Assembly (NCBI GenBank): GCA_029565395.1
Contig: JAKQOG010000028.1
Span: 8,362-72,361, forward strand
Direction of reading: 5' to 3'
Origin: Candidatus Hydrogenedentota bacterium
GTDB taxonomy: Bacteria; Hydrogenedentota; Hydrogenedentia; Hydrogenedentales; CAILVY01
DNA length: 64,000 nt
Below the pieces are notes generated by a model, which saw nothing but the letters and a program-made list of their open reading frames with translations, was not told where the DNA came from and did not search any database. Numbering within the stretch: position 1 is the stretch's first letter; each line of letters starts with the position of its first letter. Positions 1 through 51,617 of this stretch are shown piece by piece. The translations under genes and the position numbers were made by a program.

Positions 1-549
1 CAATACCGCCAGTACCTGGAAGCCACGGGGGCGCCCGATCCACGGTTCTGGCGGGACCCTCAATGCAATGGCCCCAACCAGCCTGTTGTCGGCATCTCCT
101 GGAAAGAAGCCCTCGACTACTCCGCTTGGGCAGGGAAAATGCTTCCCACGGAGGCACAATGGGAATTCGCCGCGCGTGGACGGCAAAACCGGAAATACCC
201 TTGGGGCAACCTCCCCCCGGATTCCACCCGCGCGAATTTCGCTGAATACCTGGGCATGCCCTCCATCGTTACCATGCATGAAGACGGACGCACTCCGGAA
301 GGCATCTACGATCTTGCCGGAAACGTGTATGAATGGACCATTGATCCCTTCGTTCCCTATCCCGTCCAACGCTACAACCCCCAAGCCTGCGCCAATGCCC
401 CCCGGCGCACGGCCCGGGGCGGTTGCTGGAATTCAAAATCCAACGAACTTCTCTGCACCTTCCGCAAAGGGCTTTTCCCGGAAATCCGCGAAAACACCGT
501 CGGCTTCCGCTGCGTTATCCCCGCCAGCCGAAATATCCATCACGAGTAA
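1..549 (+). CDS. FGE-sulfatase (SUMF1-like, formylglycine-generating enzyme family) domain protein, 5-prime truncated by window edge
   Basis: Frame 1 is open from base 1. The translation (..GISWKEALDYSAWAGKMLPTEAQWEFAARG..YPWG..GNVYEWT..RGGCW..GFRCV) carries the conserved FGE-sulfatase domain motifs. Confidence 0.85.
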   Translation, partial: QYRQYLEATGAPDPRFWRDPQCNGPNQPVVGISWKEALDYSAWAGKMLPTEAQWEFAARGRQNRKYPWGNLPPDSTRANFAEYLGMPSIVTMHEDGRTPEGIYDLAGNVYEWTIDPFVPYPVQRYNPQACANAPRRTARGGCWNSKSNELLCTFRKGLFPEIRENTVGFRCVIPASRNIHHE

Positions 550-639
550 AAACCGTAATTATCTCCAGCAACTGCACCTTGCTTCCCGCATTTCGAATCC
601 AGGACAACAACTGCAAACCTGCAAATCCCCGCCCTGCCC

Positions 640-656
640 GTTCCATATTATGGAAC
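640..656. promoter_or_regulatory. Perfect 8-bp-arm palindrome GTTCCATA-T-TATGGAAC, candidate operator upstream of the TerB-like operon
   Basis: The inverted repeat was read directly. It lies about 22 bp upstream of the putative -35 element and about 80 bp upstream of the first ORF of the cassette. Confidence 0.35.
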
Positions 657-677
657 GCCGCCAGACGATAATCCTTC

Positions 678-707
678 TTGATTTACCCATGTATCGCATC
701 TTATTAT
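678..707 (+). promoter_or_regulatory. Putative sigma-70-type promoter of the TerB-like cassette
   Basis: TTGATT (678-683), an 18-nt spacer, then TATTAT (702-707). It is followed by the RBS GGGAGGGA and ATG 735. Confidence 0.4.
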
Positions 708-734
708 ATTAATGTGTTCTGGAAGGGAGGGATT

Positions 735-860
735 ATGAAGTACATGGTGAGAATGGGTTTGGAGCTAGGTGTTGCATTTGTCGCATTAACGGTATTCACA
801 CAAACAAAAATGAAAAATAAACCAAAAGAAACTAAAGAAGGGAGAAGCGTATGTTTTTAG
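735..860 (+). CDS. 41-aa micro-protein with one hydrophobic helix and a Lys-rich tail
   Basis: ATG 735 lies 4 nt after a strong RBS (GGGAGGGA). The sequence MKYMVRMGLELGVAFVALTVFTQTKMKNKPKETKEG.. has one TM-like segment. Its stop (858-860) overlaps ATG 851 of the next gene, which suggests translational coupling. Confidence 0.4.
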   Translation: MKYMVRMGLELGVAFVALTVFTQTKMKNKPKETKEGRSVCF

Positions 861-1255
861 CTTTGCTCAACAAACCACAGAAGAAGGCTTTCTGGACGCT
901 CGCAAACGCATTCGTGGCAGCTGATGGAAAACTTGATGCCTCCGAGAAGACAATGCTTGACATGATGAAAAAGGAGATGGGGCTGGATTCGGAACCCAGA
1001 TTGGACCGTAGATCCGCAGACTCGTTGTTCGCCATCTTCGATACGCGGCAATCCAGAATAGTAACGCTCTTAGAAATAATTGGCTTGGGCTACTCTGATT
1101 CCAAGTATTCTGCAAGCGAGTGCGAATTCGTTGCAAGGATGTCCAAAGCATTCAAAATTACGCAGAAGGAGGTTTCTGTCCTGGAAAATTGGGTATCCCG
1201 ACAGTTAGCACTCGTGACCGAAGCACACGCGCTCATAAGCGGAAAGGGGAAATGA
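851..1255 (+). CDS. TerB-like (tellurite-resistance TerB / DjlA N-terminal type) domain protein
   Basis: 134-aa ORF with RBS GGGAGAAG. It contains two TerB-type helix pairs with the ADG-x3-4-E signature (VAADGKLDASEKTMLDMM and SDSKYSASECEFVARM). Confidence 0.75.
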   Translation: MFLALLNKPQKKAFWTLANAFVAADGKLDASEKTMLDMMKKEMGLDSEPRLDRRSADSLFAIFDTRQSRIVTLLEIIGLGYSDSKYSASECEFVARMSKAFKITQKEVSVLENWVSRQLALVTEAHALISGKGK

Positions 1256-1256
1256 C

Positions 1257-2264
1257 ATGCCATTGCCACTTCTTATAATACCTATTGTCTTCGGTTCGGG
1301 TCTCTGGGGCTTATATAAGGGAAGCCGAGCGGTGAGTGATTCTTCTAAGGCATCGAAACTGAATACGGAGGCTCATGAGGTTTTTCGGACGGCATCAAGG
1401 AAACTTAAAAATCAGAAACGACTGACAACAAATACTCTTGAGGAACTCGGCACGCTCAAGCTAAATGCATGGAAGAACCAAATACGGCGATTCGTGGATG
1501 TCTTCGGAAAGATCAAAAATGTCGAGATTACTGGAACAATTAGCAGTCAGTTTGCACTAAAGGGTTTTGTGAAAGATGATCTGGCTGAAATGCAACAGAT
1601 TTCGCTTCATGCAACGGAGATTCTAGGAGGTGGAATAGCAGCCTTAAGTGCTGGCGCATTGGCAGGTTTTGGCGCCTATGGCGGTGCAACCTTGCTGGCA
1701 TCCGCGTCTACAGGGACGGCGATCTCAACTCTGTCAGGAGTGGCGGCTACAAATGCCACTTTGGCGTGGTTCGGTGGAGGCGCCCTTTCGGCGGGAGGTC
1801 TTGGAATTGCTGGCGGTACTGCTGTCTTGGGAGGGATTGTGGCAGGCCCCGCGTTGCTAATAGGAGGAGTGATTCTGTCAGCAAAGGCCAAGCAAAAACT
1901 GGCCGCCGCACATAGTAATCTTGCGGAAGCATCGGAAGCTGCAGAACAGATGAAAAACGTCACATCTACTTTGAAAGGAATCGAGAAAGTCACTGTTGAG
2001 TTTTCAGAGTTGATTGGAGAATTAACCCCCCGGGTGAAAAAACAGATTGATGGATTAGCAAAGCTGGTTCAAGAAAATGGTAGCGATTATACAACCTATA
2101 CTCTCTCACAACGGAAGAAAGTTCATTTGACCTTAGAGTTCACCTATCTTCTAAAACAAATCCTGGAAACCCCACTCCTCAGTAAAAACGGAGCCCCTAA
2201 ACGTGGTCTTGCAGGAATGTTGGAGAGTTTTCGAGACACGCAAACGAGTCTTGAGGGAACCTGA
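1257..2264 (+). CDS. Glycine-zipper / coiled-coil membrane protein, family not recognised
   Basis: The ATG lies one base after the TerB-like stop (TGAcATG). The protein has an N-terminal TM helix (LPLLIIPIVFGSGLWGLY) and a helical region of about 100 aa. A Gly/Ala-rich hydrophobic block of about 95 aa follows (ILGGGIAALSAGALAGFGAYGG..GGLGIAGGTAVLGGIVAGPALLIGGVILSA), then a helical C-terminus. Confidence 0.7.
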   Translation: MPLPLLIIPIVFGSGLWGLYKGSRAVSDSSKASKLNTEAHEVFRTASRKLKNQKRLTTNTLEELGTLKLNAWKNQIRRFVDVFGKIKNVEITGTISSQFALKGFVKDDLAEMQQISLHATEILGGGIAALSAGALAGFGAYGGATLLASASTGTAISTLSGVAATNATLAWFGGGALSAGGLGIAGGTAVLGGIVAGPALLIGGVILSAKAKQKLAAAHSNLAEASEAAEQMKNVTSTLKGIEKVTVEFSELIGELTPRVKKQIDGLAKLVQENGSDYTTYTLSQRKKVHLTLEFTYLLKQILETPLLSKNGAPKRGLAGMLESFRDTQTSLEGT

Positions 2265-2275
2265 AGGGAAATTTT

Positions 2276-3715
2276 ATGCCCGAAAATAAGAAAAAGAAAT
2301 CGAAGGCCAATACTCTTAAGACAGCAGACAATGCGGCTGCGCTTGGAAGCGCTCTTGTTGGCGGGCAGGCAACAGTGCTTCAGGCAGCCGCAACGGATGC
2401 CATGGTTGATGGAATGGACAAGTTCCGCGACATGGTTGAGCGTGTTGGAAACAAGGATATTCGCTTCAGGGCAGGCCACCTTTTTGAGACGATACTCGCT
2501 GCAAAGGAGAACGCGTCTCTGGCAGGAACTGGGTCCAAAGTGCGTGTAATTGTCACTCATCTTGACCACAGAAACACAGTGCCTCAGGATCTCGAATGGC
2601 AGGAAGGAGGAAGAATTCTTGCGGAAGGTCAGGCAAAATTCACTGCTGCATTAGGTGAAAATGGACTTCGTAGACTTGCTGAGGCAGTCAATGATACTAA
2701 ATATGATGGAATGCGATTATATGTTCCGGCAGACCGTATTGAACGAGTCAGGGAAAAACTCCTGGAGATGGCCAAAAACTCGACGGATACGGATATGAGT
2801 CGCAAGCTTGAGGCAACAGCTAAACGGCTGGTGGATCATGATACGGGTATTCGTGAAGTTCTCTATGCCGACAAAATGCCGGAAATCTATGCCCTTGGGA
2901 ATGAGGTATCTTATGTCTTTCGTGAAGCCGCAACTGCTGGTGCTTGGGCGGCTGCCTCTGGCGCTATCGTGGGTGGCGGAATATCACTCGCAAAAAATGC
3001 ATATTGCCTAGCCAAAGGAGACCTTTCCAAGGAGGAAGCGGCCAAATCCATCATTGCTGATGCAGGAAAAGCAGGTGCCCGTAGTGGAGCCTCTGGCATA
3101 ATTGGTGCCAGTATACGATACGGAGCTCAGAAAGCGGGATTGAATGCACTGGCAAAATCCAACGTCGCGACTGCTGTGGCAGCGGGTGTCATTGACTGTG
3201 GAGTAACCATATGGAAATTCGCCGAAGGAGAACTCACTGCCGAAGAAACAATGGAGAAGCTCGGTCAAAACGGCACCAGCACCATTTCCAGCATTTATGT
3301 GGGCGCTGCCGCTGGCGCGATCTTTGGACCCGTGGGAGCAGTGGTGGGGAGTATTGCAGGATATTTGGTCGCATCAAACCTGTATCAGGGGTGCCTGGCG
3401 ATTCTTAAGAATGCTCGATTGGCAGAAGAACAGGCCAATCGAATAGTAGCTATCTGCGAGGAGTCCATCCGCCAGATGCGCTCACAACGTGAGGAATTCG
3501 AATCTCTCTTGGAGAAGAATATTAAAATACGCCGTCAGGAGTTTGCTTGCTGCTTTGCTGCAATTGATGGTGCACTTGAGAGTGATTCCCATGAGAATGC
3601 TATTTCTGCTGTTGCCGATTTTCTTGGACTATTTGGCAAAAAACTCAAATTCCCCTCATTTGAGGAATTCGACGCTTTTATGACCAACCTAAATGAGCCG
3701 TTACGACTTGACTAG
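2276..3715 (+). CDS. Membrane protein with soluble N-terminal domain, two glycine-zipper hydrophobic blocks and helical C-terminus, family not recognised
   Basis: The ATG lies 11 nt after the previous stop, with RBS GAAGGGAA. The N-terminal ~200 aa are soluble (FRAGHLFETIL..DLEWQEGGRILAEGQAKF). Two hydrophobic blocks follow: AATAGAWAAASGAIVGGGISLA and IYVGAAAGAIFGPVGAVVGSIAGYLVA. Confidence 0.7.
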   Translation: MPENKKKKSKANTLKTADNAAALGSALVGGQATVLQAAATDAMVDGMDKFRDMVERVGNKDIRFRAGHLFETILAAKENASLAGTGSKVRVIVTHLDHRNTVPQDLEWQEGGRILAEGQAKFTAALGENGLRRLAEAVNDTKYDGMRLYVPADRIERVREKLLEMAKNSTDTDMSRKLEATAKRLVDHDTGIREVLYADKMPEIYALGNEVSYVFREAATAGAWAAASGAIVGGGISLAKNAYCLAKGDLSKEEAAKSIIADAGKAGARSGASGIIGASIRYGAQKAGLNALAKSNVATAVAAGVIDCGVTIWKFAEGELTAEETMEKLGQNGTSTISSIYVGAAAGAIFGPVGAVVGSIAGYLVASNLYQGCLAILKNARLAEEQANRIVAICEESIRQMRSQREEFESLLEKNIKIRRQEFACCFAAIDGALESDSHENAISAVADFLGLFGKKLKFPSFEEFDAFMTNLNEPLRLD

Positions 3716-3791
3716 CTTGTTTTTACAGATAAAGTTGCGGATTTTTGTTAGAATGTGGTTCTGCATGTGATAAAACGCGAGCGGATTATCA

Positions 3792-4397
3792 CTATTCAAG
3801 CTCATTCCATTCTTTTTTCAGGTATGCAAACAGCTTCTTTATTTGATACGATTTATTTAATCCTGTCTTGCACCAAACCGCGAAATGCTCGCAGTTGTTG
3901 AACATCAGACTGTAATTTTGTTCTCCCAAACGTGAGTATGCCCGCTGGACGGTTTCTTCTGGGGAAAAGAGTTGATGTTGGGAGCGGCCAAGGAATTCCA
4001 GCAGCAATGGAATTACATTATCTTGGACAATGGTCCTTTTGGCATTCACCTTTGGCGCCGAAACAGAAGGTTTTTTCTTTGTTTTCTTTTTTGCGGCAAA
4101 AGCCAGCACAAAATAGGACGTGGACCCTTTTAAAAAACAGTCCAGAGATGTCTTCTGTATGATGGCATTTCTGCCTATTTCAGATTCCCCGGTATAGTGA
4201 ATAACCTTGTTCCACCCCACATAAACGCCGTAATGCTCGTATCCAAGGCTTCGTTCCACACCTATGATATCCCCCTTTTTCAGCTTTGCTTGCTTCTTCT
4301 TACATATGGAAGGGGAATCACTCTCATCCTTCGGGAATACCTTGTCAAGTGCATATTCTGCAACCGTTCCAAGAACCAAGTGTCGAATCCGTTTCAT
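3792..4397 (-). CDS. LRAT/PLAAT-like NlpC/P60 superfamily thiol hydrolase or acyltransferase
   Basis: His box YEHYGVYVGWNKVIHYTG and Cys box FNNCEHFAVWCKTG. NCEHF is the signature of the LRAT/HRASLS(PLAAT) branch. A Lys-rich insert (AAKKKTKKKPSVSAPKVNAKR) separates the boxes. The gene is convergent with the TerB-like operon. Confidence 0.8.
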   Translation of the reverse strand: MKRIRHLVLGTVAEYALDKVFPKDESDSPSICKKKQAKLKKGDIIGVERSLGYEHYGVYVGWNKVIHYTGESEIGRNAIIQKTSLDCFLKGSTSYFVLAFAAKKKTKKKPSVSAPKVNAKRTIVQDNVIPLLLEFLGRSQHQLFSPEETVQRAYSRLGEQNYSLMFNNCEHFAVWCKTGLNKSYQIKKLFAYLKKEWNELE

Positions 4398-4627
4398 AAA
4401 ATTGCTCTTTGTTCTCCTTGCAGTCGATGATCATATCATTTTCTACGGCGCAATCCTTAAACGATGCAAAGTTTCACGGTGCACTTCGGGAAGGCGCAGT
4501 ATTCGATGCCATAGAAACCACTGAACTCTGCCAGGCGTAAAAGAGCATGTCGATTCACAAAAAGAAGATATTCTCCTCAAAAAAACACAGCAGACTGCGT
4601 TTTTACCAAAAGAATGCCTAAAATTGG

Positions 4628-7138
4628 CTAAAACCCGGCCTTCCCTACTTCCAGTTCGATGGTGCGCGACATTTTTTCTCCCGGGGCCAGCGTCACCGGT
4701 TTCGCCCAGACCTCGCACTCCAGGACATTCAGATACTCCGGATACGCATAGAGCCAGGTGTAATCCGTGCCCGCATCATCAAACCGCTCCGTTACCTGGA
4801 GTCCTTTTGAGCCCGTCAGCATCCACTCCCCTTTCGGCGCATGCTGATCAAAATAATGCTCGCCTTCCCGCAGCCCGGCGATGATGGGCGCCATGTCCCG
4901 CTCCACCGTCAGCCCCGCGCGATCCGTGAACCGCACCCGCGTTTTCGCGAGTTCACCCAGATCCAGGGCGAGATGACTCCGCACAATCTGTTCCTTCGGT
5001 TTATCCGTCGTGTTCGTCACGTCCACCGTAACCCGCAGTTTCGGCTGATCCTCCACCAAGCTCAGCGTCCGCCGCACCAGCATCCCGCGGGGCGTCTTCA
5101 CCTCCATCGCCACCGATGTTGCTGTCTTCTCCACCGTTTCAAACCGCTCAAAGAGGCATTCCTGCCCCGTATCGAATTCCGTGCCGATCCGCGTCTCTTC
5201 CCCCCCCTCAAACGGAAAGGCCAAATACCGCACCGTGTTATATGCCGTGACGCTCTGCCCCGACGCATTGTCCGCCACCCGCAGCGCGCGCCCGCTAAAG
5301 AAGGGCACCGCCTGCACCGTCAACGCCGCATTGCGAATGGTCTCCACCGGCACCGGCGCATTAATCACCAGTCCAAGAACCGCCAATTGCGCCGGGTCCC
5401 CGCCGTGTTCCCGAAGCGTCGGGAAATTATGCTGCTTCATCCGGTCAAGAAACGTCATGATTTCCGGCAACTGGGCAATTTCCCCGTTAAACGACAGACG
5501 ATCCTCTTCCAGGGTGAATCCATTCCTGGGGAAAAAGCGGGCATAGGTCAGCGGCATCCGCGCCACACGGACACGCTCCAGCAATTCCGCATCCGCCTTC
5601 ACCGCTTCCTCCGCCTGATCAAAAAGCTCCCCGGCCCGCGTCATCACCTCGTCCGTCAAGTACCCCTGCCCCGGATTCGTGTAAAGATGCATATGAATGT
5701 TTTCATTCTGCACCTTGTCATGCAGCAGGGTGATGTACTGATACATAGGCCCGGAGGCCGCGCCATAATATCCTTCGAGAAAATCCTGAATAAGCGCTTC
5801 CGGATCCTGATCGGGATTCCACAACAACTTCATTCCGTAATACGGGCGTAACAATCCAAACTCCCCCCCGGCAGGCCCCATTCCCTGAAGAAACATGCCC
5901 TCCACGCCAATGTCACGGTAATACTTCATATCCGCCGCCATTGCGCGGAAATTCGGAAACGGATTGAAGTAATGCGCAAAATCCACGATGTAATGCCAGA
6001 CGTACACGTGCGAACAGATCTTCGCCCATGCCTCGCCCCGGCGCTTGTACTCCGCATTCAGTGGACACGACGCAATCGGGTGGCTGTCGCATGACGGAAA
6101 CATATGGCACAGCCACACCGCAATATTCGGATGCATCACAAGCCCTTTCGGCGGCTCTTCCGTGTACATATACGCCAGCGTGCCAATCAGCTTGCCGGGA
6201 TACACCTTCGCTGTCCGCTCCGCCAACTGATTTAGAAACCAATACTGCGTCCCGCCCCGCGTGCCATACCGTTCATTGATCTCCCTGCATTTCGCGCACT
6301 GACAATAGTTGTAACAATCCATCTGTGAAAAATTATGTTGCCGCGCGTTTGGGTTGTCCGCCATCCGCTTCAACATCCGCTCCGTCACAATCTCCAGCAC
6401 ATCCGGGTTCGTCAGGCAAAGCTGCGTTTCCGTTTTGCGCCGAACGCCTCCAATCTCCGAAAAATATTCCGGGTGCGCATCAAAAAACTCGCCCGGACTG
6501 ATAAAGTTGAAATAACTGTGGCAGATCCCGTCAAACGCATATTGGATCCCCTGCGCATTATCCGGTCCACCGCTCCCTGCATTCTCCCCCTGGCGCGAAC
6601 GAAACTCCGCGTCCCCCCCCGGCCAGCCATACGTTGTCTGACGGTACGCAAACACAGGCTTTTTAATAGTATCCACCTCTGGCAACAACAATTCACTCGC
6701 TTGCGGCGCCTTCGTCACCCCGGGGGCATACCACCGCACCCCCAAATACTGCTCGATAAAATCCCGGACCCCATACAACGTTCCGGCCGCCGAAGTTCCC
6801 GCGATCACCAGATGCGGCGAAATGGCCCGCATACAATATCCCTGCTCGCCAAGCTGTTCCGCTGCCGGCGATACCCCCAGCGCCTCCGCTACCGGGCCAC
6901 ACCCCAGCACAATCATCGGAATGCCGTCTCCCGGCTTATCTGATGTAATCGTTAATTCAACCCCCGTGCAGGCTTTCACATAACTCTTCAATTCCTCCGC
7001 CGCGACTTTCTCTGATGGACTCGCCCCCGCCTGAAGCACAATCACATACGCGCTCTTTCCTTCCTTTACCATCCACTCGCCATACACGGCTGTCATTACC
7101 AAAAGACAAACAAACAGACAACCAATCACGCGCTTCAT
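4628..7138 (-). CDS. DUF4838-like secreted protein (glycoside-hydrolase-like), signal peptide
   Basis: Start refined to ATG 7138 (RBS GGGAGA; MKRVIGCLFVCLLVMTAVYG signal peptide). The N-terminal region (KSAYVIVL..AAEELKSYVKACTGVEL..TLYGVRDFIEQYLGVRWY) is typical of DUF4838. It is a paralog of 18501-20765. Confidence 0.8.
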   Translation of the reverse strand: MKRVIGCLFVCLLVMTAVYGEWMVKEGKSAYVIVLQAGASPSEKVAAEELKSYVKACTGVELTITSDKPGDGIPMIVLGCGPVAEALGVSPAAEQLGEQGYCMRAISPHLVIAGTSAAGTLYGVRDFIEQYLGVRWYAPGVTKAPQASELLLPEVDTIKKPVFAYRQTTYGWPGGDAEFRSRQGENAGSGGPDNAQGIQYAFDGICHSYFNFISPGEFFDAHPEYFSEIGGVRRKTETQLCLTNPDVLEIVTERMLKRMADNPNARQHNFSQMDCYNYCQCAKCREINERYGTRGGTQYWFLNQLAERTAKVYPGKLIGTLAYMYTEEPPKGLVMHPNIAVWLCHMFPSCDSHPIASCPLNAEYKRRGEAWAKICSHVYVWHYIVDFAHYFNPFPNFRAMAADMKYYRDIGVEGMFLQGMGPAGGEFGLLRPYYGMKLLWNPDQDPEALIQDFLEGYYGAASGPMYQYITLLHDKVQNENIHMHLYTNPGQGYLTDEVMTRAGELFDQAEEAVKADAELLERVRVARMPLTYARFFPRNGFTLEEDRLSFNGEIAQLPEIMTFLDRMKQHNFPTLREHGGDPAQLAVLGLVINAPVPVETIRNAALTVQAVPFFSGRALRVADNASGQSVTAYNTVRYLAFPFEGGEETRIGTEFDTGQECLFERFETVEKTATSVAMEVKTPRGMLVRRTLSLVEDQPKLRVTVDVTNTTDKPKEQIVRSHLALDLGELAKTRVRFTDRAGLTVERDMAPIIAGLREGEHYFDQHAPKGEWMLTGSKGLQVTERFDDAGTDYTWLYAYPEYLNVLECEVWAKPVTLAPGEKMSRTIELEVGKAGF

Positions 7139-8709: not shown

Positions 8710-8884
8710 AGGCGATTCGCTCCACCAAAACCATCACCAGGATCATACTCCATGCATATATCCCGTGGGAAATCGCAAGGTTCCATGATCTTCTCAAGCC
8801 CAATATGTTTCAAGAAGCCTCCAATCGTCACAGTTGACCATTTATTTCATTCATGAGAAAATACAAGTATAAAGGAGCGCTGTG

Positions 8885-9133
8885 ATGCCCGTTATTGCGA
8901 GATTTTACGGAATCGTGATCAAGATGTATTTCAAGGAACATGGGATTCCTCATTTTCATGCCGTCTATGGGGAGTTCAATGGGGTCTTTGAGGTTGAGAC
9001 CCTTGAGATGATCGAGGGGGACTTACCCAACAGGGCGATCAGGTTGGTAAAAGAATGGGCTGAACGTTACCGGCCAGAACTGCTGGAGATGTGGAGAACA
9101 CAACAATTCAGGCAGATGCCAGGATTAGAATAG
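8885..9133 (+). CDS. DUF4160 domain protein
   Basis: The translation MPVIARFYGIVIKMYFKEHGIPHFHAVYGEF.. matches the DUF4160 signature (FYGI.I.MY..EH.PPHFH). The start is taken at ATG 8885. Confidence 0.8.
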   Translation: MPVIARFYGIVIKMYFKEHGIPHFHAVYGEFNGVFEVETLEMIEGDLPNRAIRLVKEWAERYRPELLEMWRTQQFRQMPGLE

Positions 9134-10375: not shown

Positions 10376-11287
10376 TCATAGCCATCTTTTCTCCATCACT
10401 TCCATCACATGGTCTACAGTTATGCTGTCCAGGCAACATGCATGCTTCCACGGGCACACCCGCATATCCGGTTCAACCTCCGCCTTATTCCAATACCCCT
10501 GGCATTCCTGCGTACTCCTGATCGGATAAAAATTCGGCTCATTTTGAATCAGAATATCTGGTTCCGTCGGGCCAAACAACCCCACCACCGGCGTGTTCGC
10601 CGCCAGAGCCAGATGCATCAGCCCGGAATCGCACGAAATCAATAGATCCGCCTGATGCAAAACACACGCCGCCTCGCGCACACTTGTTTTATCCATCAAG
10701 TTAAGCCCCACGCCAACCGGCTCGGTATTCCGCCCCAATTCCACCACCCGCGCACCACGGGCCTGCAACACCCCGCATAACTCCCGCCAGCGGTCCATGC
10801 GCCAGTGTTTCGTCGGCCAGGTAGTTCCAGGAGCCACCGCCACCACCGGTCCCTGTCCTTCTGCCAGCCCCTCCAACAACCCCGTGCTCCAATCCTGAAA
10901 ATACACATGCGGACGCGACACCGGCATCCCTACGCCCGCCACACGGCAATAATGCTGCAACCGGTACACATCCCTCGGCGCGCCCCGCAGCAGCACATAC
11001 CGGTCCACCACCGCCGGAACCGCATTCACCGAATCCACAAAGGGGTGCTCCTCAAAAAGCTCCGGGAAATTCGTCAGCACGGAAATATAATCGGACGGAT
11101 ACTTCGCGCGAAGACTCTCAAACACCGGCAACGCCATGATTTCATCCCCCAGCCGCCAGCGCAACTCAACCAGGATTGTGCGGGGCGCCCCCACCATGCG
11201 TTTCAACGGCCACCGCACCGCGCGCGTCATCCGCCGCACGCGCCGGCGTATCCGCCCAAACTGATCTTCATACGTTTCATCGTGCAT
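10376..11287 (-). CDS. Glycosyltransferase family 9 (heptosyltransferase-like)
   Basis: GT9 hallmarks: LGDEIMALPVFESLRAKYP, PGTTWPTKHW, and DSGLMHLALAANTPVVGLFGPT. Start taken at ATG 11287. Confidence 0.8.
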   Translation of the reverse strand: MHDETYEDQFGRIRRRVRRMTRAVRWPLKRMVGAPRTILVELRWRLGDEIMALPVFESLRAKYPSDYISVLTNFPELFEEHPFVDSVNAVPAVVDRYVLLRGAPRDVYRLQHYCRVAGVGMPVSRPHVYFQDWSTGLLEGLAEGQGPVVAVAPGTTWPTKHWRMDRWRELCGVLQARGARVVELGRNTEPVGVGLNLMDKTSVREAACVLHQADLLISCDSGLMHLALAANTPVVGLFGPTEPDILIQNEPNFYPIRSTQECQGYWNKAEVEPDMRVCPWKHACCLDSITVDHVMEVMEKRWL

Positions 11288-11366
11288 AAAACCTATTCTA
11301 AACAAAGCCCCCCGTGAAAAACAGAGCGGCATTCACCCCGCCTTTTCATATACAATCTTTCCCAAC

Positions 11367-13220
11367 ATGGATACAGACGGTCAAGATCAGACCTTTCATC
11401 GCCGCCTGCTCTACGGCGCGGCGCTCTGGGTTTTCGTTTGTATCATCGCCGTGCTCCTTCGCGGCATCCGATGGGACGAAACCTACGAGCACGCGCAACT
11501 CCTCGCCGGACAAGTTCCTTATCCAGAAGATCACCCCCTCCGGCTCTATGTGCACAACGCCTTCAGTATCCAACCCTTCCTATCCGCAGGAATTCTCCTC
11601 TGCGGTGCGGGTCCCCTGATTGTCTGCGGACTGCGCAACATCCTTTTCCTGCTCGCCACTCTCCTCCCCGTGTATATGATCACCGCACAAGCCACTGGCC
11701 GCACCCTGTGGGGCCATGCCGCCGCCGCCCTCCTCCTCCAAGGCATCCTGCTCGAATTTGACGGAAGTTACCCTACTTTCGTCTGGCCCGAACTCTACTC
11801 CAACGGCCATATCGGCGGCGCCTGGGCGCTGATAACCGTCTGGGCCTTGCTCTCAAACCACCTGCGTGCCGCAAGCCTCCTTTTCGGGCTTATGCCCTGC
11901 ATCCACCTCGGACAATGGCCCCCCGTCGTGGTTGTGTTCTCTATATTCGCCCTTTTTGAACTTCACCAGCGGAATTTCATAAAAATCCGGCCCCTAGCCG
12001 TCTATACCACCCTCGGACTTCTTATCAGCCTCCTCTTTTTCATAACGCAACGCATTTTCTTTCACGAAAACCTCCCAGCCGCTTCCGAAAATGATCTATG
12101 GGCCATTTGGAAAGGATACACCTTCCATTTTGATCCCCATCGCCGATTCCCGCCCGCCAACGGCCAAATCCTCCTTTGCGGAATGCTGCTGTTATCCGGA
12201 GTAGCCGCGTGGAGAAAATCCGAATACCGCCGGCTCTGCCTCGGTTTGTTTCTATACAGCGCCGCCATCGCGCTCTGCGTTTGGGGCATTATGCTTGCCC
12301 AAATCCTCCTGGGAGAGAACACCCCCTTCCTCCTCGTCTCCTGGATGCCCTGCCGTCTCATCAATCATCTGCCTCCTCTCTGTCTCGCACTCATTATCAG
12401 CGTGTTGGCTCCCCGCCACACCCTGTGGATCATCGCCGCGCTTCTCTTCGCAACCTTCCATCCTTTTCTTAAACCCCTTCTCGGCGCGTCCCTCTACACC
12501 CGCTACCTCTCCGGCGGCGAATGCATTCTCTTCGCACTCTATGGCGCCGCCCTATGGACTCTCCTCCTTCCCGGCTCCCGGACCCCGGATTCCAAATCCC
12601 CTCTTCCATTCCTAAGCCTTCCTGCCTGCCTTCTGATCATAGCCCTCTCCATCACCCTCGGTTTCTTCCATCAATTCGGCGCGTGTTGCATGATCTTGGG
12701 AATACTTGCGGCCTGCCTTTTCAACCATCTCCCAAAATTCCACATACTATCCCTATCAGCCTTGGCCACCGCCATCCTGCTCGCTCTTGTTACCGCGGTA
12801 TACCACCAAACACAATCCCGCCAACAACTCCCGATTCCTCCTTTCGATCAACAGCTCCGCACAACCTTAACAGACGAACCCAATGCCATGCTGGTTGGTC
12901 CGCCTGACACCCTTCTGCTTCAAGCCCATACAGGCCATCCCATCCTCGCAGAAAGCGCCACGCCCTCATTAATCAGTTATATTCCCGCCCTCGGCCCCGG
13001 CATCAACCGCCTCTACGAAGATCTCTACGGCATTTCATTTCTGAATCCTGCCTCCTCGTCCACCTCTTGGGATCAGATCTGGTCAGACCGCACACTCCAG
13101 GAATGGCAAACCCTTTCCCATCAATACCAATTCCACTATGTAATCTCGCTGCCTTCCATTAAATTACAATTGCCCATTCTTTTTGATACCGACGGCGCCA
13201 CGCTCTATCAAATTCCATGA
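11367..13220 (+). CDS. Polytopic membrane protein (more than 12 TM segments) with C-terminal soluble domain, possible GT-C-fold glycosyltransferase or polymerase
   Basis: 617-aa ORF, highly hydrophobic, divergent from the GT9 gene. No specific family motif was recognised. Confidence 0.65.
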   Translation: MDTDGQDQTFHRRLLYGAALWVFVCIIAVLLRGIRWDETYEHAQLLAGQVPYPEDHPLRLYVHNAFSIQPFLSAGILLCGAGPLIVCGLRNILFLLATLLPVYMITAQATGRTLWGHAAAALLLQGILLEFDGSYPTFVWPELYSNGHIGGAWALITVWALLSNHLRAASLLFGLMPCIHLGQWPPVVVVFSIFALFELHQRNFIKIRPLAVYTTLGLLISLLFFITQRIFFHENLPAASENDLWAIWKGYTFHFDPHRRFPPANGQILLCGMLLLSGVAAWRKSEYRRLCLGLFLYSAAIALCVWGIMLAQILLGENTPFLLVSWMPCRLINHLPPLCLALIISVLAPRHTLWIIAALLFATFHPFLKPLLGASLYTRYLSGGECILFALYGAALWTLLLPGSRTPDSKSPLPFLSLPACLLIIALSITLGFFHQFGACCMILGILAACLFNHLPKFHILSLSALATAILLALVTAVYHQTQSRQQLPIPPFDQQLRTTLTDEPNAMLVGPPDTLLLQAHTGHPILAESATPSLISYIPALGPGINRLYEDLYGISFLNPASSSTSWDQIWSDRTLQEWQTLSHQYQFHYVISLPSIKLQLPILFDTDGATLYQIP

Positions 13221-23204: not shown

Positions 23205-23411
23205 TCAGGGCATGTTTCTCGGTGGCGAATAGGTGGTCTTGGACGAAATGCGGCGCCACCAAACGGCTGCGGGGTGTTCTGAGGTTTCAAGCTTCTGCTG
23301 AACACGTTTGCGGATTTCGTCCTGGGACAGGTCTGCGTATTCCTTTGCATGCTGCGCTTGGATGGTTTCCTTCATCGCAACGCAATCAAACTCTTTGATT
23401 TTGGCTACCAT
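23205..23411 (-). CDS. Small protein translationally coupled to the PIN gene (putative antitoxin)
   Basis: Its ATG overlaps the PIN stop (ATGGTAG, a 7-nt overlap). The 68-aa product is helical and charged. Confidence 0.6.
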   Translation of the reverse strand: MVAKIKEFDCVAMKETIQAQHAKEYADLSQDEIRKRVQQKLETSEHPAAVWWRRISSKTTYSPPRNMP

Positions 23412-23863
23412 GTTACGATCTCCTGAGGCGATCTAATCTCAATCATAGAATATCCTTCGAGCGCATTTACTGCGTTGAATTTCCTGATCTTGTCCAAATG
23501 GACAATATGCTTGAAGTTCCAACTGACGATGATGTCTGCGGCGGCGACGGTGGCCAGTGCCACGTGAAGTGCGTCATCTTTAGAGGATTGCCCCACAACG
23601 CCAGCGTTCAAGTAGCATTCCTGAAGACGATAGGCTTCATCCGAACGAATGATCTGTTCGACACAATCCCCAGGGAGCATTTGCAACACTTCAGCAACCG
23701 CGGGCGGCGCTTCTAGCAGTTCATCGGCAAGCAAGTCGGAAACCAAAAGGACGATTTCACCCTGCTCCGCCATCTCCAACAGCTTTCGGCTAGCCTCGGC
23801 GAATATGTCTTCCAGACATCCCCCGACTACGGAAGTATCTATATATACACGCAATTTTCGCAT
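23405..23863 (-). CDS. PIN-domain (VapC-like) ribonuclease toxin
   Basis: MRKLRVYIDTSVV.. (first acidic residue), ..LLVSDLLADEL.., ..DDALHVALA.., ..IVSWNFKH. The conserved acidic residues follow the PIN pattern. Confidence 0.8.
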   Translation of the reverse strand: MRKLRVYIDTSVVGGCLEDIFAEASRKLLEMAEQGEIVLLVSDLLADELLEAPPAVAEVLQMLPGDCVEQIIRSDEAYRLQECYLNAGVVGQSSKDDALHVALATVAAADIIVSWNFKHIVHLDKIRKFNAVNALEGYSMIEIRSPQEIVTW

Positions 23864-23977
23864 TCACTATGCGCTCCAATGAACATCGATGACGATTGTA
23901 GACCACGAGCCTTGCACGATCAAATAATCGTTTATTGAAGTTTTATAGACTTTCTCGCAGATAGGAATAAACATGAA

Positions 23978-24100
23978 TTATTCCAGCCCATAGTTTACGA
24001 TATTGTATTGGAAGGTGGGGTGTTTGATCTCCAAATGTTCGGCGGGTTTGGAGCGGTTCCAGTTGAATTTTTCGAGGGCGCCGAGGATGAGTTCGGATTG
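23978..24100 (-). pseudogene. Fragment of a sigma-54 activator C-terminal Fis-type HTH (last ~40 codons plus stop)
   Basis: The minus-strand translation is ..SELILGALEKFNWNRSKPAEHLEIKHPTFQYNIVNYGLE*. The intact gene end at 25263-25385 reads ..SELIRGALEKFHWNRSKAAEHLGLKRTTLQYKIKKYGLE*. A hand alignment matches about 100 of 123 nt. No upstream AAA+ body is present. Confidence 0.65.
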
Positions 24101-24117
24101 ATAAATTACTGCAGGCG

Positions 24118-25227
24118 TCACTTGATAGGGTGTTTGTTGTCTTTATTGGTCTGGGGTGGCATATCGGTCTCCTGCGATGCGATCTCATCAAGTTTCTTTC
24201 GAAGACGTCTCGATACACTAAAAAACGGAGCATAGATCAAAATTCCTATGCCGAGTAAATACAATACGATTATGAAATTTATACAATAATCCCAGGATGT
24301 TTTTAATGGGAGCATCTTAATCAATGGCCATACTAAAAAATAGCAAATATAAGCAAAATATCCTAATGTAGCGATAATTCTAGCTTTTCGAAGCGACAAG
24401 AGCATCTTCTCGATATCTGCCCGTCGTTCTCCAAGTTCTTTTCGCGATAAGGTTATTCCCTGCTCAGCACAGATCATCACTCGACTTGGAGGTACATACT
24501 TTAGAAAAAGTGCGGTTATAACTTCGGGCTTTGGGCCAAACCATAGTTTGCTTCCATCTCTTACATCGCAGCGGAGAACAACCTGGCGATCTGGAAGTTG
24601 CAGAGAGAGATGATAGAAGTCGTCATGGAAATGACTCCACCGTTTTATAGTCAATTGTTCGACATCGCTCCATGAAAAAGTCCAGGCTGTTCGCCACAAA
24701 CGTACGGTTATGCCTCCGCTGCAACATCGTACTCGGGTTCCAAATGATGGCCTGACCGGCACCGTAAAGGCAATTTCATCATCAGTATCAAGCGGGGTGA
24801 TCGGTGGCATCAACGATCGACAGAAATTTAGCAGATACTCACAATCTTTGTCTTCAAGATAGAGGAATGAAAGTGGTTTCAGACTTTGACAGTCCCAAAC
24901 GAACACGAATGTACTTGGCAGTCTTCGTTGGCGGGCATTTCCATTTTGGAAGCACTCCCAAGGCCAATGACGCCACCCTAGAAAGCGCCGTCTTGAGATA
25001 CCGCGAGAATCGACCGTTAGACGCCAGCGAAAAAGCCACAATAAAAAACAAACAGAGATAAAAAGAAGAAAGCTCCAGACCACACAAAGTGCTGTGAGGT
25101 CTTGGGAAACGGAATCCTTATTCGAAATCCACCACACTAACGGAGGCGCGAGTAGTGCAGCGGCAAAAATATAATAGGCGCACCGTCGATACTTTCCTGC
25201 AAGCCTGAATTCTTGACGTTCAATCAT
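24118..25227 (-). CDS. Membrane protein of unknown function (2 N-terminal and 2-3 C-terminal TM helices flanking a soluble region)
   Basis: Start refined to ATG 25227, because the longer ORF would overlap the upstream regulator gene. The gene is AT-richer than the flanking DNA. No family was recognised. Confidence 0.65.
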   Translation of the reverse strand: MIERQEFRLAGKYRRCAYYIFAAALLAPPLVWWISNKDSVSQDLTALCVVWSFLLFISVCFLLWLFRWRLTVDSRGISRRRFLGWRHWPWECFQNGNARQRRLPSTFVFVWDCQSLKPLSFLYLEDKDCEYLLNFCRSLMPPITPLDTDDEIAFTVPVRPSFGTRVRCCSGGITVRLWRTAWTFSWSDVEQLTIKRWSHFHDDFYHLSLQLPDRQVVLRCDVRDGSKLWFGPKPEVITALFLKYVPPSRVMICAEQGITLSRKELGERRADIEKMLLSLRKARIIATLGYFAYICYFLVWPLIKMLPLKTSWDYCINFIIVLYLLGIGILIYAPFFSVSRRLRKKLDEIASQETDMPPQTNKDNKHPIK

Positions 25228-48651: not shown

Positions 48652-48752
48652 TTTTTGGGGATACACGAAACGGCCCGTCGTGGAGTAAAATGGGAGCCAC
48701 ACTGTCGTTGGGCGGTTTTTGGGCAGTCAACCTATATAAAGGAGCACGAGCT

Positions 48753-50213
48753 ATGGACAGGCGGTTTGGACGCAGAGCGTTTATGCAGGCGGCGGGCATT
48801 GGCGGCGCGGCAGTATACCTGGGATCGATGCAGGGCATGGTTTCCGCAGCGGCGCCGTCAACGGTGGTCATCAGTCCGGGGGCGCGGAAATCCAAAGTGA
48901 AGGTGGCCAAACTGTATCTGGGCATCCCGAAGGCCCATTGGCCGCATCCAACGATGGATATCGAAGCGGAGCAAAAAAAGTACGAAGAGGAATTCGCCAA
49001 GCGCTCCAAAGACTTTTCCGATATTGATTTTGTAGTGTCGGAACTGGTCACCAAGCAGGAACAGGTTGACCAGCTTCGTGAGCGCTTGGCAGAGGTGGAC
49101 GGGATTCTGGTTATCCACCTTTCCATGGGCATTGTGCCGATGCTGAAAAAGGTGCTGGAAGCAGGAAAGCCAACCATGCTGTTCGCAGCGCCGTATTCGG
49201 GCCATGAGTGGACACAATTCGGCAGTCTGCAAAACACACCGGGCGTAAGACTCGAATGTATGCTCACCAGCGACTTTGGGCAACTTGCGGCGGCGGTGCG
49301 CCCGTTCCGCGCGATCCATCACTTGCGCGAAGCAAAACTTCTGGATGTCACCGCCAGACCGCCTGCGCCAGAGTATGTACAATCGATCAAGGACAAATTC
49401 GGTACGGAGATTGTACAGATTGAAAAGCCCCGTATGATGGCCGCGTATGAGAGCATTGCTCCCGCTGCCGCAGAAGACGAAGCCAAGAGCTGGATAAAAC
49501 ACGCCACCAAGGTGGTGGAACCGTCGCGCGAAGAAGTCGTCAACTCCTGCCGTCTCGCGCTGGCCTTTGAAAAACTCATGGACGAGGAGCAGGCCACGGG
49601 GATCACCGTGGATTGCTATGGCAGCATGTACCGGCAACTGCCCGCGTTCCCATGCATCGGATTCACCCGGCTCAACGACATTGGTTTCGCGGGCATCTGC
49701 GAATCTGACCTTAAGTCCGCCGTCACCTTCATGATGATGCAAAGCTTGTGTGGCAAGCCGGGATTCATCAGCGATCCGACCGTGGACGAATCCAAAGGCG
49801 GCATTATCCTCGCGCACTGTCTCGGTTCCACCAAAATGAACGGCCCGGACGGCGAGGCCAGCCCCTACAAACTGCGCTGCATCATGGAACGCCAGGAAGG
49901 CGCCGTAACCCAGGTGAGCATGCCCGTCGGACCGAAAACAACCCAGGCCATTCTTGTGGGCACGGACCAATTGCGCTATTTCACCGGCGACGTTATTGAG
50001 GCCCCCGATATCGAACGCGGCTGCCGCACAAAAATTAACGTGAAAGTGGACGGCGATATCGAGTGCCTGTGGAAAAACTGGTCGAACGGACTCCACCGTG
50101 TTACCTGCTACGGCGACCTCCGCCCCGACCTCAAACGCTATGCCCATTTCATGGATATCAAACTGCTGGATGAAGCACGGCCAATTACGGTGGAAGAGCC
50201 GAAAGCGGTGTGA
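48753..50213 (+). CDS. TAT-signal exported hypothetical protein
   Basis: ATG 48753 follows AAGGAG. The TAT motif is DRRFGRRAFMQAAGIGGAAVYLG. The body family was not recognised. Confidence 0.7.
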   Translation: MDRRFGRRAFMQAAGIGGAAVYLGSMQGMVSAAAPSTVVISPGARKSKVKVAKLYLGIPKAHWPHPTMDIEAEQKKYEEEFAKRSKDFSDIDFVVSELVTKQEQVDQLRERLAEVDGILVIHLSMGIVPMLKKVLEAGKPTMLFAAPYSGHEWTQFGSLQNTPGVRLECMLTSDFGQLAAAVRPFRAIHHLREAKLLDVTARPPAPEYVQSIKDKFGTEIVQIEKPRMMAAYESIAPAAAEDEAKSWIKHATKVVEPSREEVVNSCRLALAFEKLMDEEQATGITVDCYGSMYRQLPAFPCIGFTRLNDIGFAGICESDLKSAVTFMMMQSLCGKPGFISDPTVDESKGGIILAHCLGSTKMNGPDGEASPYKLRCIMERQEGAVTQVSMPVGPKTTQAILVGTDQLRYFTGDVIEAPDIERGCRTKINVKVDGDIECLWKNWSNGLHRVTCYGDLRPDLKRYAHFMDIKLLDEARPITVEEPKAV

Positions 50214-50268
50214 TCAGAGATTCTGTTGCTCGGTTTGTTCAAAACGAAGCTTTTGGAACAAGCCCGTT

Positions 50269-50287
50269 TCCCAAGTGCAACTTGGGA
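50269..50287 (+). terminator. Hairpin TCCCAAGT-GCA-ACTTGGGA downstream of 48753-50213 (terminator candidate)
   Basis: Perfect 8-bp stem, extendable with one bulge, followed within about 10 nt by TTTTATT. Confidence 0.4.
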
Positions 50288-50360
50288 ACGAGAGGACATT
50301 TTATTCTTGGTTGTTGTACTATTTGAGACAAACTTGTTTCAGTTAGAAAGGGGAATTTTT

Positions 50361-51617
50361 ATGAGTGGGCCATGTATTATTTTAGATAAATCTGCTTTTC
50401 AATCTCTTAAAAAGTCAGAGTCTTTTATTCTTCATAAATATTTCTTTGTGAATGTGCCGCCAGTCCTTGTACTTGAAATCATTGGTGATCTTAAAAAACT
50501 TTCCCTAAAAAAAGATCCTCACAAAATGGTAAGCGAGTATGCAGGCAAGTTACTTTTGTCTAACGGATTTGTAAACACACATTTTACACAGCTTCTCACT
50601 TCATCCCTAAAAGGAGAACCTGTTTTTATGGATGGTCGACCATTGATTGGAATGGGTCGATCATCTTATGTTGAAGGACAAGGCAAAGGAGTTGTTATTG
50701 ATTGTTCCCCAGAGTTAGAGGCAGTAAATAGGTGGAAAGATGGAAATTTCCTGAAATCGGAGGAAATACTTGCAGAAAGATGGCGCAACATTACCCAAGG
50801 CATTAACCTTGAGTATTTGCGGCAAAAACTTCGCGCAAAAGCATTGCGTATTCCTCGAGTTGAGATACCGGAGGAATTGATTGAAATGGTTGATGACTTT
50901 TTATCAAATATATCCAATCCAATAGGTGAACTGTATTGGCTTTTCTTGGAGTTAGGTGTAGCGCCGAACACAATAGAGCGAGCTAGTCTTAGGTGGCAGA
51001 ATTGTGGATATACCAACCTAGTCTCTTTTGCCCCCTATGCTCACCATTGTGTTCGCGTGTCGTTATTTTTCTATATGGGCCTTTTTCATAATTGTCCATT
51101 CACTGGAACACGCGCTACAAATAAAATAGACCTTGAATATCTTTATTACCTGCCCTTTTGTAATGTATTTGCCAGTGGCGATAATTTTCACGTACGTATT
51201 TGCCGTGTTTTTTTACGCAAAGATCAGTCATTTGTTGGAAGGGACGACCTAAAAAGAGATCTAGCCGCTATAGATTCGCTTTGGGTTAAGTTCACCCCAA
51301 ACCAAAAAGCATATATTTGGCCCCCTGAACGTGAAGGTTCAATAGTGTTGGACCTTTGGAAAAAACATGTTGCGCCAGTGAGAAGTGACGATCAAAATCT
51401 AGCGTTTCTTATGTCTAAGGAAAAGCAAGAAGAGATTCTCTCTCGTCTCAAATTAATTAAGGCAACGGCACAGCAAAATGCATCGAGTCAATATGACTTT
51501 TCTCCTATTCACGAACCAGAATTTATTCAAATTTCTCAGAAAATGAATCCAAAAGATCCCTGCCCTTGTGGAAGCGGACTACCTGCGGGCCAATGCCACC
51601 TTAAAAATATCAAATAA
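50361..51617 (+). CDS. PIN-like domain protein with C-terminal SEC-C metal-binding motif
   Basis: Strongly AT-rich gene with ATG 50361 after AAAGGGGA. The N-terminus CIILDKSAF..VLVLEIIGDL is PIN-like (D, E). The later motif IDLEYLYYLPFCNVFASGDNFH supplies further acidic residues. The C-terminus DPCPCGSGLPAGQCH is a SEC-C motif. Confidence 0.7.
   Translation: MSGPCIILDKSAFQSLKKSESFILHKYFFVNVPPVLVLEIIGDLKKLSLKKDPHKMVSEYAGKLLLSNGFVNTHFTQLLTSSLKGEPVFMDGRPLIGMGRSSYVEGQGKGVVIDCSPELEAVNRWKDGNFLKSEEILAERWRNITQGINLEYLRQKLRAKALRIPRVEIPEELIEMVDDFLSNISNPIGELYWLFLELGVAPNTIERASLRWQNCGYTNLVSFAPYAHHCVRVSLFFYMGLFHNCPFTGTRATNKIDLEYLYYLPFCNVFASGDNFHVRICRVFLRKDQSFVGRDDLKRDLAAIDSLWVKFTPNQKAYIWPPEREGSIVLDLWKKHVAPVRSDDQNLAFLMSKEKQEEILSRLKLIKATAQQNASSQYDFSPIHEPEFIQISQKMNPKDPCPCGSGLPAGQCHLKNIK

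Follow-up and report, generated by a model that had tools for sequence, protein, structure and literature searches.

What kind of system is encoded by the compact, G+C-poor gene cassette at positions 735–3715 of a 64,000-nucleotide stretch (hereafter the window) of contig JAKQOG010000028.1 from a Candidatus Hydrogenedentota bacterium? Here we present an analysis of this cassette, which encodes a TerB-like protein and two larger glycine-rich membrane proteins (hereafter referred to as A and B), and conclude that it is probably a horizontally acquired anti-phage system that belongs to the Dionysus / PDC-M09 family but has its genes in a permuted order. Membership of this family, as judged by homology, is very likely. 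An anti-phage role in this organism, read by analogy with a tested relative, is likely, and a mechanism in which the system targets a vesicle and delivers an enzyme is put forward tentatively. A preliminary description of the locus had proposed a horizontally acquired conflict module made of a TerB-like protein and two membrane proteins, a proposal that is supported by homology to Dionysus and by base composition. The same description knew of no named system of this kind and considered the module a candidate for an undescribed one; this is contradicted by the homology of its proteins to DinA, DinB and DinC of Dionysus and by the match of A and B to PDC-M09. The features of the locus are listed below.

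639–657, no strand: perfect palindrome (9+1+9; CGTTCCATAtTATGGAACG) in the upstream intergenic region
678–707, plus strand: weak sigma-70-like promoter match, TTGATT-18-TATTAT (9 of 12 positions)
735–860, plus strand: hydrophobic open reading frame (ORF) of 41 aa with a good Shine-Dalgarno sequence, overlapping the start of the TerB-like gene by 10 nt
851–1255, plus strand: TerB-like protein, 134 aa, homologue of DinB (Pfam TerB; profile match to DinB)
1257–2264, plus strand: protein A, 335 aa, related by homology to DinC and PDC-M09A; hydrophobic helix at the N-terminus, long helices, and a Gly-rich membrane block in the centre
1620–1883, plus strand: uncharged Gly/Ala/Ser/Thr block of A, 88 residues (122–209), with a near-invariant signature
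2276–3715, plus strand: protein B, 479 aa, related by homology to DinA and PDC-M09B; head at the N-terminus, then glycine-zipper helices and, at the C-terminus, a helical domain
2438–2800, plus strand: core of the B head, residues 55–175, predicted alpha-beta-beta-beta-alpha-beta structure with invariant residues
2915–3406, plus strand: glycine-zipper membrane region of B, residues 214–377, with hydrophobic uncharged blocks
3407–3712, plus strand: C-terminal helical domain of B, residues 378–479, the best-conserved part of the protein in the B position
3792–4397, minus strand: convergent gene for an LRAT/PLAAT-type Cys-His hydrolase or acyltransferase, 201 aa (Pfam LRAT)

Dionysus is a three-gene anti-jumbo-phage system of P. 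aeruginosa, composed of DinA (a MAEBL-like protein with a transmembrane region), DinB (TerB-like) and DinC, which resembles an alpha-pore-forming toxin and has four transmembrane segments (bioRxiv 10.1101/2025.09.30.679545). It lowers the plating of phiKZ-like jumbo phages more than 10^6-fold, all three genes are needed for defence, and the reported instances, 713 (supplement) or 361 (main text), are proteobacterial (bioRxiv 10.1101/2025.09.30.679545). We took the Dionysus protein sequences from the supplement of this preprint, in which DinA is partial. All three proteins of the window cassette have a homologue there (A for DinC, B for DinA and the TerB-like protein for DinB), and both systems are compact three-gene operons.

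The relationship is clearest for A. BLASTP aligns A with DinC at 37% identity over 313 aa (E = 9e-45), and a profile of A relatives matches DinC over its full length (1.3e-91). Both proteins belong to a class of ~340 aa with an N-terminal helix, a Gly-rich block and the signature ASTGTAIS..ATNATLAW. The Gly-rich block of A (residues 122–209) contains 29 small-xxx-small motifs as well as the near-invariant signature ASTGTAIS..VAATNATLAWFGGG, which is kept in DinC.

The similarity of B to DinA extends over head, glycine-zipper region and C-terminal domain, the last through a full-length DinA-like protein from another locus (L085; loci are numbered L). In BLASTP, the aligned part of B and DinA is the glycine-zipper region (2e-8, ~27% identity over that part). 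A profile of B matches the partial DinA sequence across both head and membrane region (4e-20), and a profile of the head alone matches it at 1.1e-9. The whole B profile, C-terminal domain included, matches the L085 protein at 1.6e-61. A and B are not paralogues of one another (hhalign probability 1%).

For the TerB-like protein, which is encoded in the same operon, the match to DinB is at the profile level. A TerB-family profile, built from 33 TerB-like neighbours of A genes, matches DinB at E = 1.1e-9; this relationship is distant, because pairwise BLASTP of the window protein against DinB finds no alignment. The fold itself, anticipated in the preliminary description together with two ADG..E helix pairs, is recognized by Pfam (PF05099; 28.1 bits against a gathering cut-off of 24.4, E = 2.8e-6). 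The first of the two motifs, AADGKLDASE, is canonical, but the second, SDSKYSASE, is degenerate.

The cassette also departs from Dionysus in several respects. Its gene order is TerB-A-B, whereas that of Dionysus is DinA-DinB-DinC. DinA carries an extra coiled-coil insert of ~70 residues compared with B, and DinB is longer than the window TerB-like protein (211 versus 134 aa). Unlike Dionysus, the window cassette is accompanied by the 41-aa ORF and the convergent LRAT gene. The specificity of Dionysus for jumbo phages cannot be assumed for the window cassette.

PDC-M09 is a two-gene cassette (FAM_02775>>FAM_02807, count 380) and one of 145 catalogued, purely predicted defence candidates that were picked out by 'guilt by embedding' within BREX, DISARM or type I restriction-modification (RM) loci (Payne et al., bioRxiv 10.1101/2024.01.29.577857). 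It has the same A-then-B arrangement as the window cassette. The PADLOC model PDC-M09A matches A strongly (9.7e-31), whereas PDC-M09B matches B weakly and over residues 221–411 only (1.3e-4). As defined, PDC-M09 has no TerB gene, and the window copy lies outside BREX, DISARM and RM loci. DinC matches PDC-M09A at 8e-25 and a DinA-like protein matches PDC-M09B at 9e-21. The window cassette, Dionysus and PDC-M09 thus appear to be branches of one family, because DinC and the DinA-like protein match the same models about equally well. As far as we could find, the Dionysus preprint mentions neither PDC-M09 nor a nuclease-like head.

The block is compositionally foreign and is horizontally acquired. 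Its GC content is 46.7% in positions 550–4627 compared with 54.7% in the rest of the window, which makes it the lowest-GC 4-kb segment (z = -4.1), and its tetranucleotide L1 distance is deviant as well (z = 7.0). GC content at third codon positions is 0.36–0.56 in the cassette genes versus 0.66–0.72 in the flanking genes. The lower GC content that had been noticed by eye in the preliminary description is borne out by the windowed calculation. Neither a tRNA gene nor flanking direct repeats were found at the borders of the island. Several metagenome contigs (JGI, ENA) carry the same locus.

The five ORFs lie at exactly the coordinates listed above, the plus-strand junctions being a 10-nt overlap, a 1-nt gap and an 11-nt gap, and a purine-rich Shine-Dalgarno-like sequence precedes all four plus-strand starts; this layout is as it had been described. 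The upstream palindrome, first placed at 640–656, is real but slightly longer, and is possibly an operator. Palindromes with an arm of at least 8 and a loop of at most 3 number 8 in the 64-kb window against ~3 in shuffled sequences; related cassettes do not share this one in their upstream regions. The proposed promoter at 678–707 is present as a match, but such matches occur in the region at chance frequency (7 found, 4.7 expected).

How the family is organized elsewhere was addressed by scanning one genome per species, which yielded 80 loci. They span Spirochaetota, Thermodesulfobacteriota, Cyanobacteria, Bacillota, Pseudomonadota, Campylobacterota, Bacteroidota and Verrucomicrobiota, a Pontiella metagenome-assembled genome (MAG) and a Hadarchaeum MAG. 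Among the 69 loci with at least 1.5 kb of sequence after A, a full-length B gene follows directly in 54 and some B-type gene in 61: A and B are tightly linked across phyla. The region before A is more variable. Where at least 800 nt were available upstream (68 loci), a TerB-like gene was found in 27, a gene for a CxxCxxCC protein (~90 aa, confirmed as PF03692) in 22, both in 12 and neither in 31. From these architecture counts, the conserved core is A together with the membrane and C-terminal module of B, and the TerB-like and CxxCxxCC proteins are frequent accessories. The expectation that TerB-like protein, A and B would together form the conserved module therefore has to be narrowed to A and B.

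The gene order of Dionysus, B-TerB-A, occurs in two loci (L048 and L055). In L086, the locus closest to the window cassette (69% identity for A, 64% for B), the genes are arranged as CxxCxxCC-TerB-A-B, and the C-terminus of the convergent gene product resembles a WYL-family regulator. The CxxCxxCC protein of this locus (~590–870, plus strand; FPCMRCGNCC...DRGDGICIHL...), upstream of TerB, was left uncalled by the gene caller of the source. No CxxCxxCC gene or remnant of one was found in the window.

The 41-aa ORF, which had been counted as a component of the system, is outside it. No counterpart was found in 25 of 28 related loci; the ORF is called as a gene in the sister contig L081, and tblastn finds a counterpart there only. 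The peptide is thus lineage-specific rather than a conserved partner. It was also considered as a decayed CxxCxxCC gene, a candidate that was rejected as the two show no similarity.

The association of the family with defence islands is qualitative. Among 117 neighbour proteins, the commonest Pfam families are GmrSD_N and DEAD, with 4 each; ResIII, WYL and recombinase domains come next. PADLOC matches among the neighbours include HEC-05/06, SspE and Cas3c, and other neighbours are ImmA with DUF4411 and clusters of integrases, with metabolic genes mixed in. One locus (L089) has five integrase genes and a gene for a ResIII/RE_endonuc protein on its flanks. In two others (L087, 3547–6698; L088, 1654–4805) a TerB-A-B cassette, with an A of 440 aa, lies between Mu-like prohead protease and portal genes, and this insertion marks it as a prophage accessory module. 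Carriage by phages or plasmids as a rule was ruled out: there were 0 cases in INPHARED, 3 among 2.9 million IMG/VR contigs and 2 large non-mobilizable replicons. A PHROGs search returned tape-measure-like low-complexity noise only.

In three further neighbourhoods, genes next to divergent A genes have a defence-related look. Beside a divergent A gene in L075 (8541–10517, minus strand) lies what was judged by eye to be a NERD-plus-helicase-like fusion, and beside another in L064 (9569–11379, plus strand) a pair resembling an AAA ATPase and a DUF4435 protein, likewise judged by eye. In L085, RefSeq annotates a WYL regulator and, as a protein of its own, a PD-(D/E)XK nuclease (6162–7127 and 10974–11981, plus strand).

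The A family is very large and unnamed, with more than 6,127 homologues at the level of 90%-identity clusters. Direct sequence searches with A and B found no match in the PDB, and the best whole-chain Foldseek matches of A there were coiled-coil ciliary proteins, which are non-significant (E ≥ 0.019). One member of the A family, P0031 (434 aa), carries an N-terminal XRE-type helix-turn-helix domain.

B is composed of three parts that differ in their conservation. Its hydrophobic, uncharged blocks are at residues 218–239, 292–316 and 329–377, and together with the block of A they account for the glycine-zipper pattern that had been noted in the two large proteins. Weak matches of B to MamC, DUF6861 and C19orf12 reflect similarity in Gly-rich transmembrane sequence; the label 'MamC' (PF26373), a weak match to such a segment, was accordingly rejected as a family assignment. 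Whole-chain Foldseek searches with B against the PDB and viral structures gave helical matches only, all non-significant.

The C-terminal half of B defines 781 clusters at 50% identity. In five loci from divergent lineages (L064, L068, L069, L071 and L073) A is followed by a short partner of ~134–238 aa, which matches only the last membrane helix and the C-terminal domain of B (about positions 370–442 of the B profile). This domain is also kept when the head is replaced by an LRAT domain. An AlphaFold 3 model predicts that DinC binds the C-terminus of DinA and that DinB dimerizes (bioRxiv 10.1101/2025.09.30.679545). The predicted contact fits with the C-terminal domain being the best-conserved part of the B position, and this domain probably binds A.

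The usual head (residues ~30–210 of B) was modelled with a predicted local distance difference test score (pLDDT) above 90 as alpha-beta-beta-beta-alpha-beta. Across 45 diverse heads, that of DinA included, only G, E, N, D, Q, K and Y residues are invariant; those numbered in B are E71, N79, D105, Q119, K121 and Y143. The Glu is placed in the first helix, the Asp at the start of the second strand and the QxK motif in the third strand. These positions within the predicted topology suggest a PD-(D/E)xK-nuclease-like arrangement, and a comparable E/D/QxK site is present in TnsA of Tn7. The head also aligned, motifs included, with the nuclease domain of Card1, a weak match (E = 0.064) that was lost with a broader, trimmed profile. 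We put the chance that the head has a PD-(D/E)xK-like nuclease fold at about even. A PD-(D/E)XK nuclease annotated beside an Azospirillum A gene was considered and is unrelated to the B head.

A second type of head came to light through the LRAT domain. In Alcanivorax (L041), the gene in the B position encodes an LRAT domain (7.6e-28) fused to the last membrane helices and the C-terminal domain of B. A search with this protein returned 27 clusters of the same LRAT::B architecture, with LRAT heads homologous to the LRAT protein of the window. Two of these fusions were viewed in context, and both lie in TerB-A-LRAT::B operons, one of them (L091) among WYL and BrxR regulators. The N-terminal head of B is thus modular, because such fusions occur in 27 clusters and within TerB-A operons and because the short partners described above match B only outside its head, and by sequence it is swappable between the E/D/QxK type and LRAT.

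The LRAT gene of the window is, as had been described, a NCEHF-motif member of the LRAT/PLAAT family (PF04970; E = 2.8e-25), and shares with it the catalytic His (YEHYG) and Cys (NNCEHF), both of which align with those of homologues. Animal PLAATs carry a C-terminal membrane anchor, as do many bacterial homologues, whereas the window protein is soluble, lacks a membrane tail and has a unique Lys-rich insertion of ~35 residues. The gene sits inside the low-GC block. A place for it in the system, which had also been suggested, is only partly upheld. As a regular neighbour of the cassette it was ruled out: LRAT adjoins the cassette only in the window organism, is fused in L041 and lies ~2.6 kb away in L018. 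At tblastn E ≤ 1, 76 of the 80 loci lack it, a number that rises to 78 when only significant E-values are counted; the closest relative (L086) is among those without it. A link through the LRAT::B fusions is nevertheless plausible, and the stand-alone gene is probably an accessory effector or a co-acquired passenger. Elsewhere, P0283 (241 aa) consists of an LRAT domain fused to a PspA/IM30 domain.

How the cassette might act can be proposed from these architectures and from what is reported for its tested relative. A and B would sit in the membrane, or be recruited to it, and form a membrane-active complex, with B anchored by its glycine-zipper helices. The TerB-like protein may be a sensor or regulator with a link to the membrane or to metal. 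When a phage infects, the A/B complex would perforate a phage-associated membrane and spare that of the host, and the head of B would then act on the contents; the E/D/QxK head would possibly do so as a nuclease, and the head found elsewhere as an LRAT-type lipid or peptide hydrolase. In its most specific form, B (like DinA) would be a membrane-anchored 'warhead carrier' that docks A (like DinC) through its glycine-zipper and C-terminal parts and bears an interchangeable enzyme head, nuclease-like in most lineages and an LRAT-type phospholipase or acyltransferase in others, a proposal that we regard as unlikely to be correct. A functional analogue is Juk (JukA/JukB), in which the early-infection vesicle of the phage is the site of pores made by JukB and phospholipases are among the effectors (2026 review, PMC13282480). 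The parallel is with a membrane-inserting pair bearing nuclease-like or LRAT heads, and concerns mechanism, not membership.

The preliminary description had favoured abortive-infection logic, according to which TerB senses infection and releases A and B to permeabilize the host inner membrane, so that the cell dies before the phage matures. Many defence systems use membrane-disrupting effectors, and the long glycine-zipper blocks of A and B, flanked by helices, would suit such a role. There is also a weak likeness to binary and tripartite alpha-pore-forming toxins (XaxAB/YaxAB, Smh, Ahl, Hbl/Nhe and ClyA), which are likewise encoded by two adjacent genes and are helical-stalk proteins with hydrophobic helical hairpins. 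The NCBIfam model XaxA matches at E = 0.016 (14.5 bits against a cut-off of 125, all NCBIfam matches being far below their cut-offs), and Foldseek relates B to SmhB and AhlB at E = 0.4–0.6 with a probability of at most 0.08. A and B are without signal peptides, and A differs from these toxins by its N-terminal anchor helix and its Gly/Ser/Thr-rich block with invariant polar residues. DinC has itself been likened to an alpha-pore-forming toxin, but cells carrying Dionysus survive infection and exclude propidium iodide, in a response that is non-abortive (bioRxiv 10.1101/2025.09.30.679545). DinA and DinC form foci at the site of infection, at the phage early-infection (EPI) vesicle; neither early-infection vesicles nor phage nuclei form when Dionysus is present, and its authors propose an attack on this vesicle, not on the host membrane (bioRxiv 10.1101/2025.09.30.679545). 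Swappable enzymatic heads on B would moreover be needless for a simple suicide pore, and we consider an abortive pore former quite unlikely.

Two other explanations dispense with a phage target. TerB was first described in tellurite and stress loci, and the cassette could be a housekeeping module for envelope stress or membrane maintenance, in which a TerB-linked response to metal or membrane stress is coupled to two proteins that remodel membranes. The A family is very large, many of its neighbours and the flanks of the window cassette are metabolic, the family is almost absent from phages, and in P0283 an LRAT domain is fused to PspA/IM30, all of which would suit such a module. However, the cassette is homologous to a validated defence system, its composition is foreign and copies reside in a Mu-like prophage. 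Its relatives occur in variable contexts with restriction, WYL and integrase neighbours and in no conserved housekeeping operon, and PDC-M09 is embedded in BREX, DISARM or RM loci. No TerC or TerD genes adjoin it; a search of cassette and flanks for terC, terD, terZ and terA, the companions in a Ter tellurite-resistance locus, found none. A housekeeping role is thus very unlikely. LRAT/NlpC-P60 domains also occur in polymorphic toxins, so that the LRAT protein could be a toxin of interbacterial antagonism and the membrane proteins its immunity or delivery partners; the LRAT gene does lie in the same low-GC block, and LRAT heads are fused to the B module. Against this, A, B and the TerB-like protein each have a homologue among the three components of a defence system, the proteins have no secretion signals and no type VI secretion, type VII secretion or contact-dependent inhibition genes lie nearby. 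As export signals are lacking and LRAT is dispensable, being absent from the closest relative and from most loci (see above), a toxin–immunity cassette is highly improbable.

The preferred reading, an acquired anti-phage cassette of the Dionysus / PDC-M09 family, has evidence weighing against it as well. The proteins share little identity with the validated system (A 37%, part of B ~27%, TerB at the profile level only), and the order of the genes differs. About 60% of A-B loci lack TerB, a protein that Dionysus cannot do without. The flanks in the window are ordinary metabolic genes, with no defence island. Dionysus is active only against nucleus-forming jumbo phages of Pseudomonas, as reported in a preprint (bioRxiv 10.1101/2025.09.30.679545). 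The target here may differ, because no such phages are known for most of the phyla in which the family occurs. As to mechanism, the similarity to pore-forming toxins was not significant in Foldseek searches, although this failed match is weak evidence, as the membrane regions of the A and B models are of low confidence. The B head has no Pfam match, whole-chain Foldseek with B gives nothing significant, and the case for a nuclease-like head consists of motifs, a predicted topology and the one match to Card1 described above.

Other TerB-containing defence systems offer a limited comparison. A TerB-like protein is required in Bunzi (BnzA) and Shango (SngA), by a mechanism that is unexplained (bioRxiv 10.1101/2025.09.30.679545). 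The partner proteins in these two systems are unrelated to A and B, and the window TerB-like protein matched no PADLOC model, those for Bunzi and Shango included.

Dionysus is among the very few systems reported to act against the vesicle that shields jumbo-phage DNA early in infection. New here are its link to PDC-M09, a distribution of the family far broader than the reported proteobacterial instances, a core of A and B with optional partners, and the swappable head. If the proposed mechanism is correct, the family would embody a general form of immunity, in which a foreign membrane compartment is opened and a degradative enzyme is brought to it. Its presence in cyanobacteria, Bacillota, spirochaetes, Campylobacterota, Verrucomicrobiota and a Hadarchaeum MAG would then imply that membrane-bound early-infection compartments are far commoner among phages than the Chimalliviridae, or that another membranous target is attacked. 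If the heads are effectors, the system would act by delivering an enzyme to a membrane target rather than by forming a mere pore. Handles on the mechanism are provided by the strictly conserved E/D/QxK motif of the DinA-type head, the replacement of this head by LRAT and the recurrent metal-binding CxxCxxCC partner.

The cassette is flanked by a kinase-FGE-sulfatase fusion, a DUF4838 glycosidase-like protein and a major facilitator superfamily (MFS) transporter. The FGE-sulfatase and DUF4838 genes had been recognized in the preliminary description, but the former is part of a kinase fusion: the gene at 139–549 (plus strand) represents only the C-terminal FGE-sulfatase part, and the full gene, at 6604–8274 of L081, encodes a 556-aa protein in which a Ser/Thr protein kinase is joined to an FGE-sulfatase domain.

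Elsewhere in the window, a DUF4160 gene (8882–9133, plus strand, with the sequence downstream to ~9400; 1.7e-19) lies in a small low-GC patch. A DUF2442 gene comes after it in the sister contigs L082 and L084 but is uncalled in L081 and L083; the two look like a strain-variable, toxin–antitoxin-like pair. A second low-GC patch at ~22.5–24 kb contains a PIN_3 protein (23405–23863, minus strand; 8e-6) and a small upstream ORF (23943–24233, minus strand), a pair that is probably a VapBC-like toxin–antitoxin. Finally, two adjacent genes at 48690–50213 and 50226–51617 (both plus strand) encode proteins of 507 and 463 aa that match no Pfam or PADLOC family, the second ending in a SEC-C motif. They lie in the lowest-GC 2-kb stretch of the window, at 50 kb (GC ~0.44), and may represent another acquired island.

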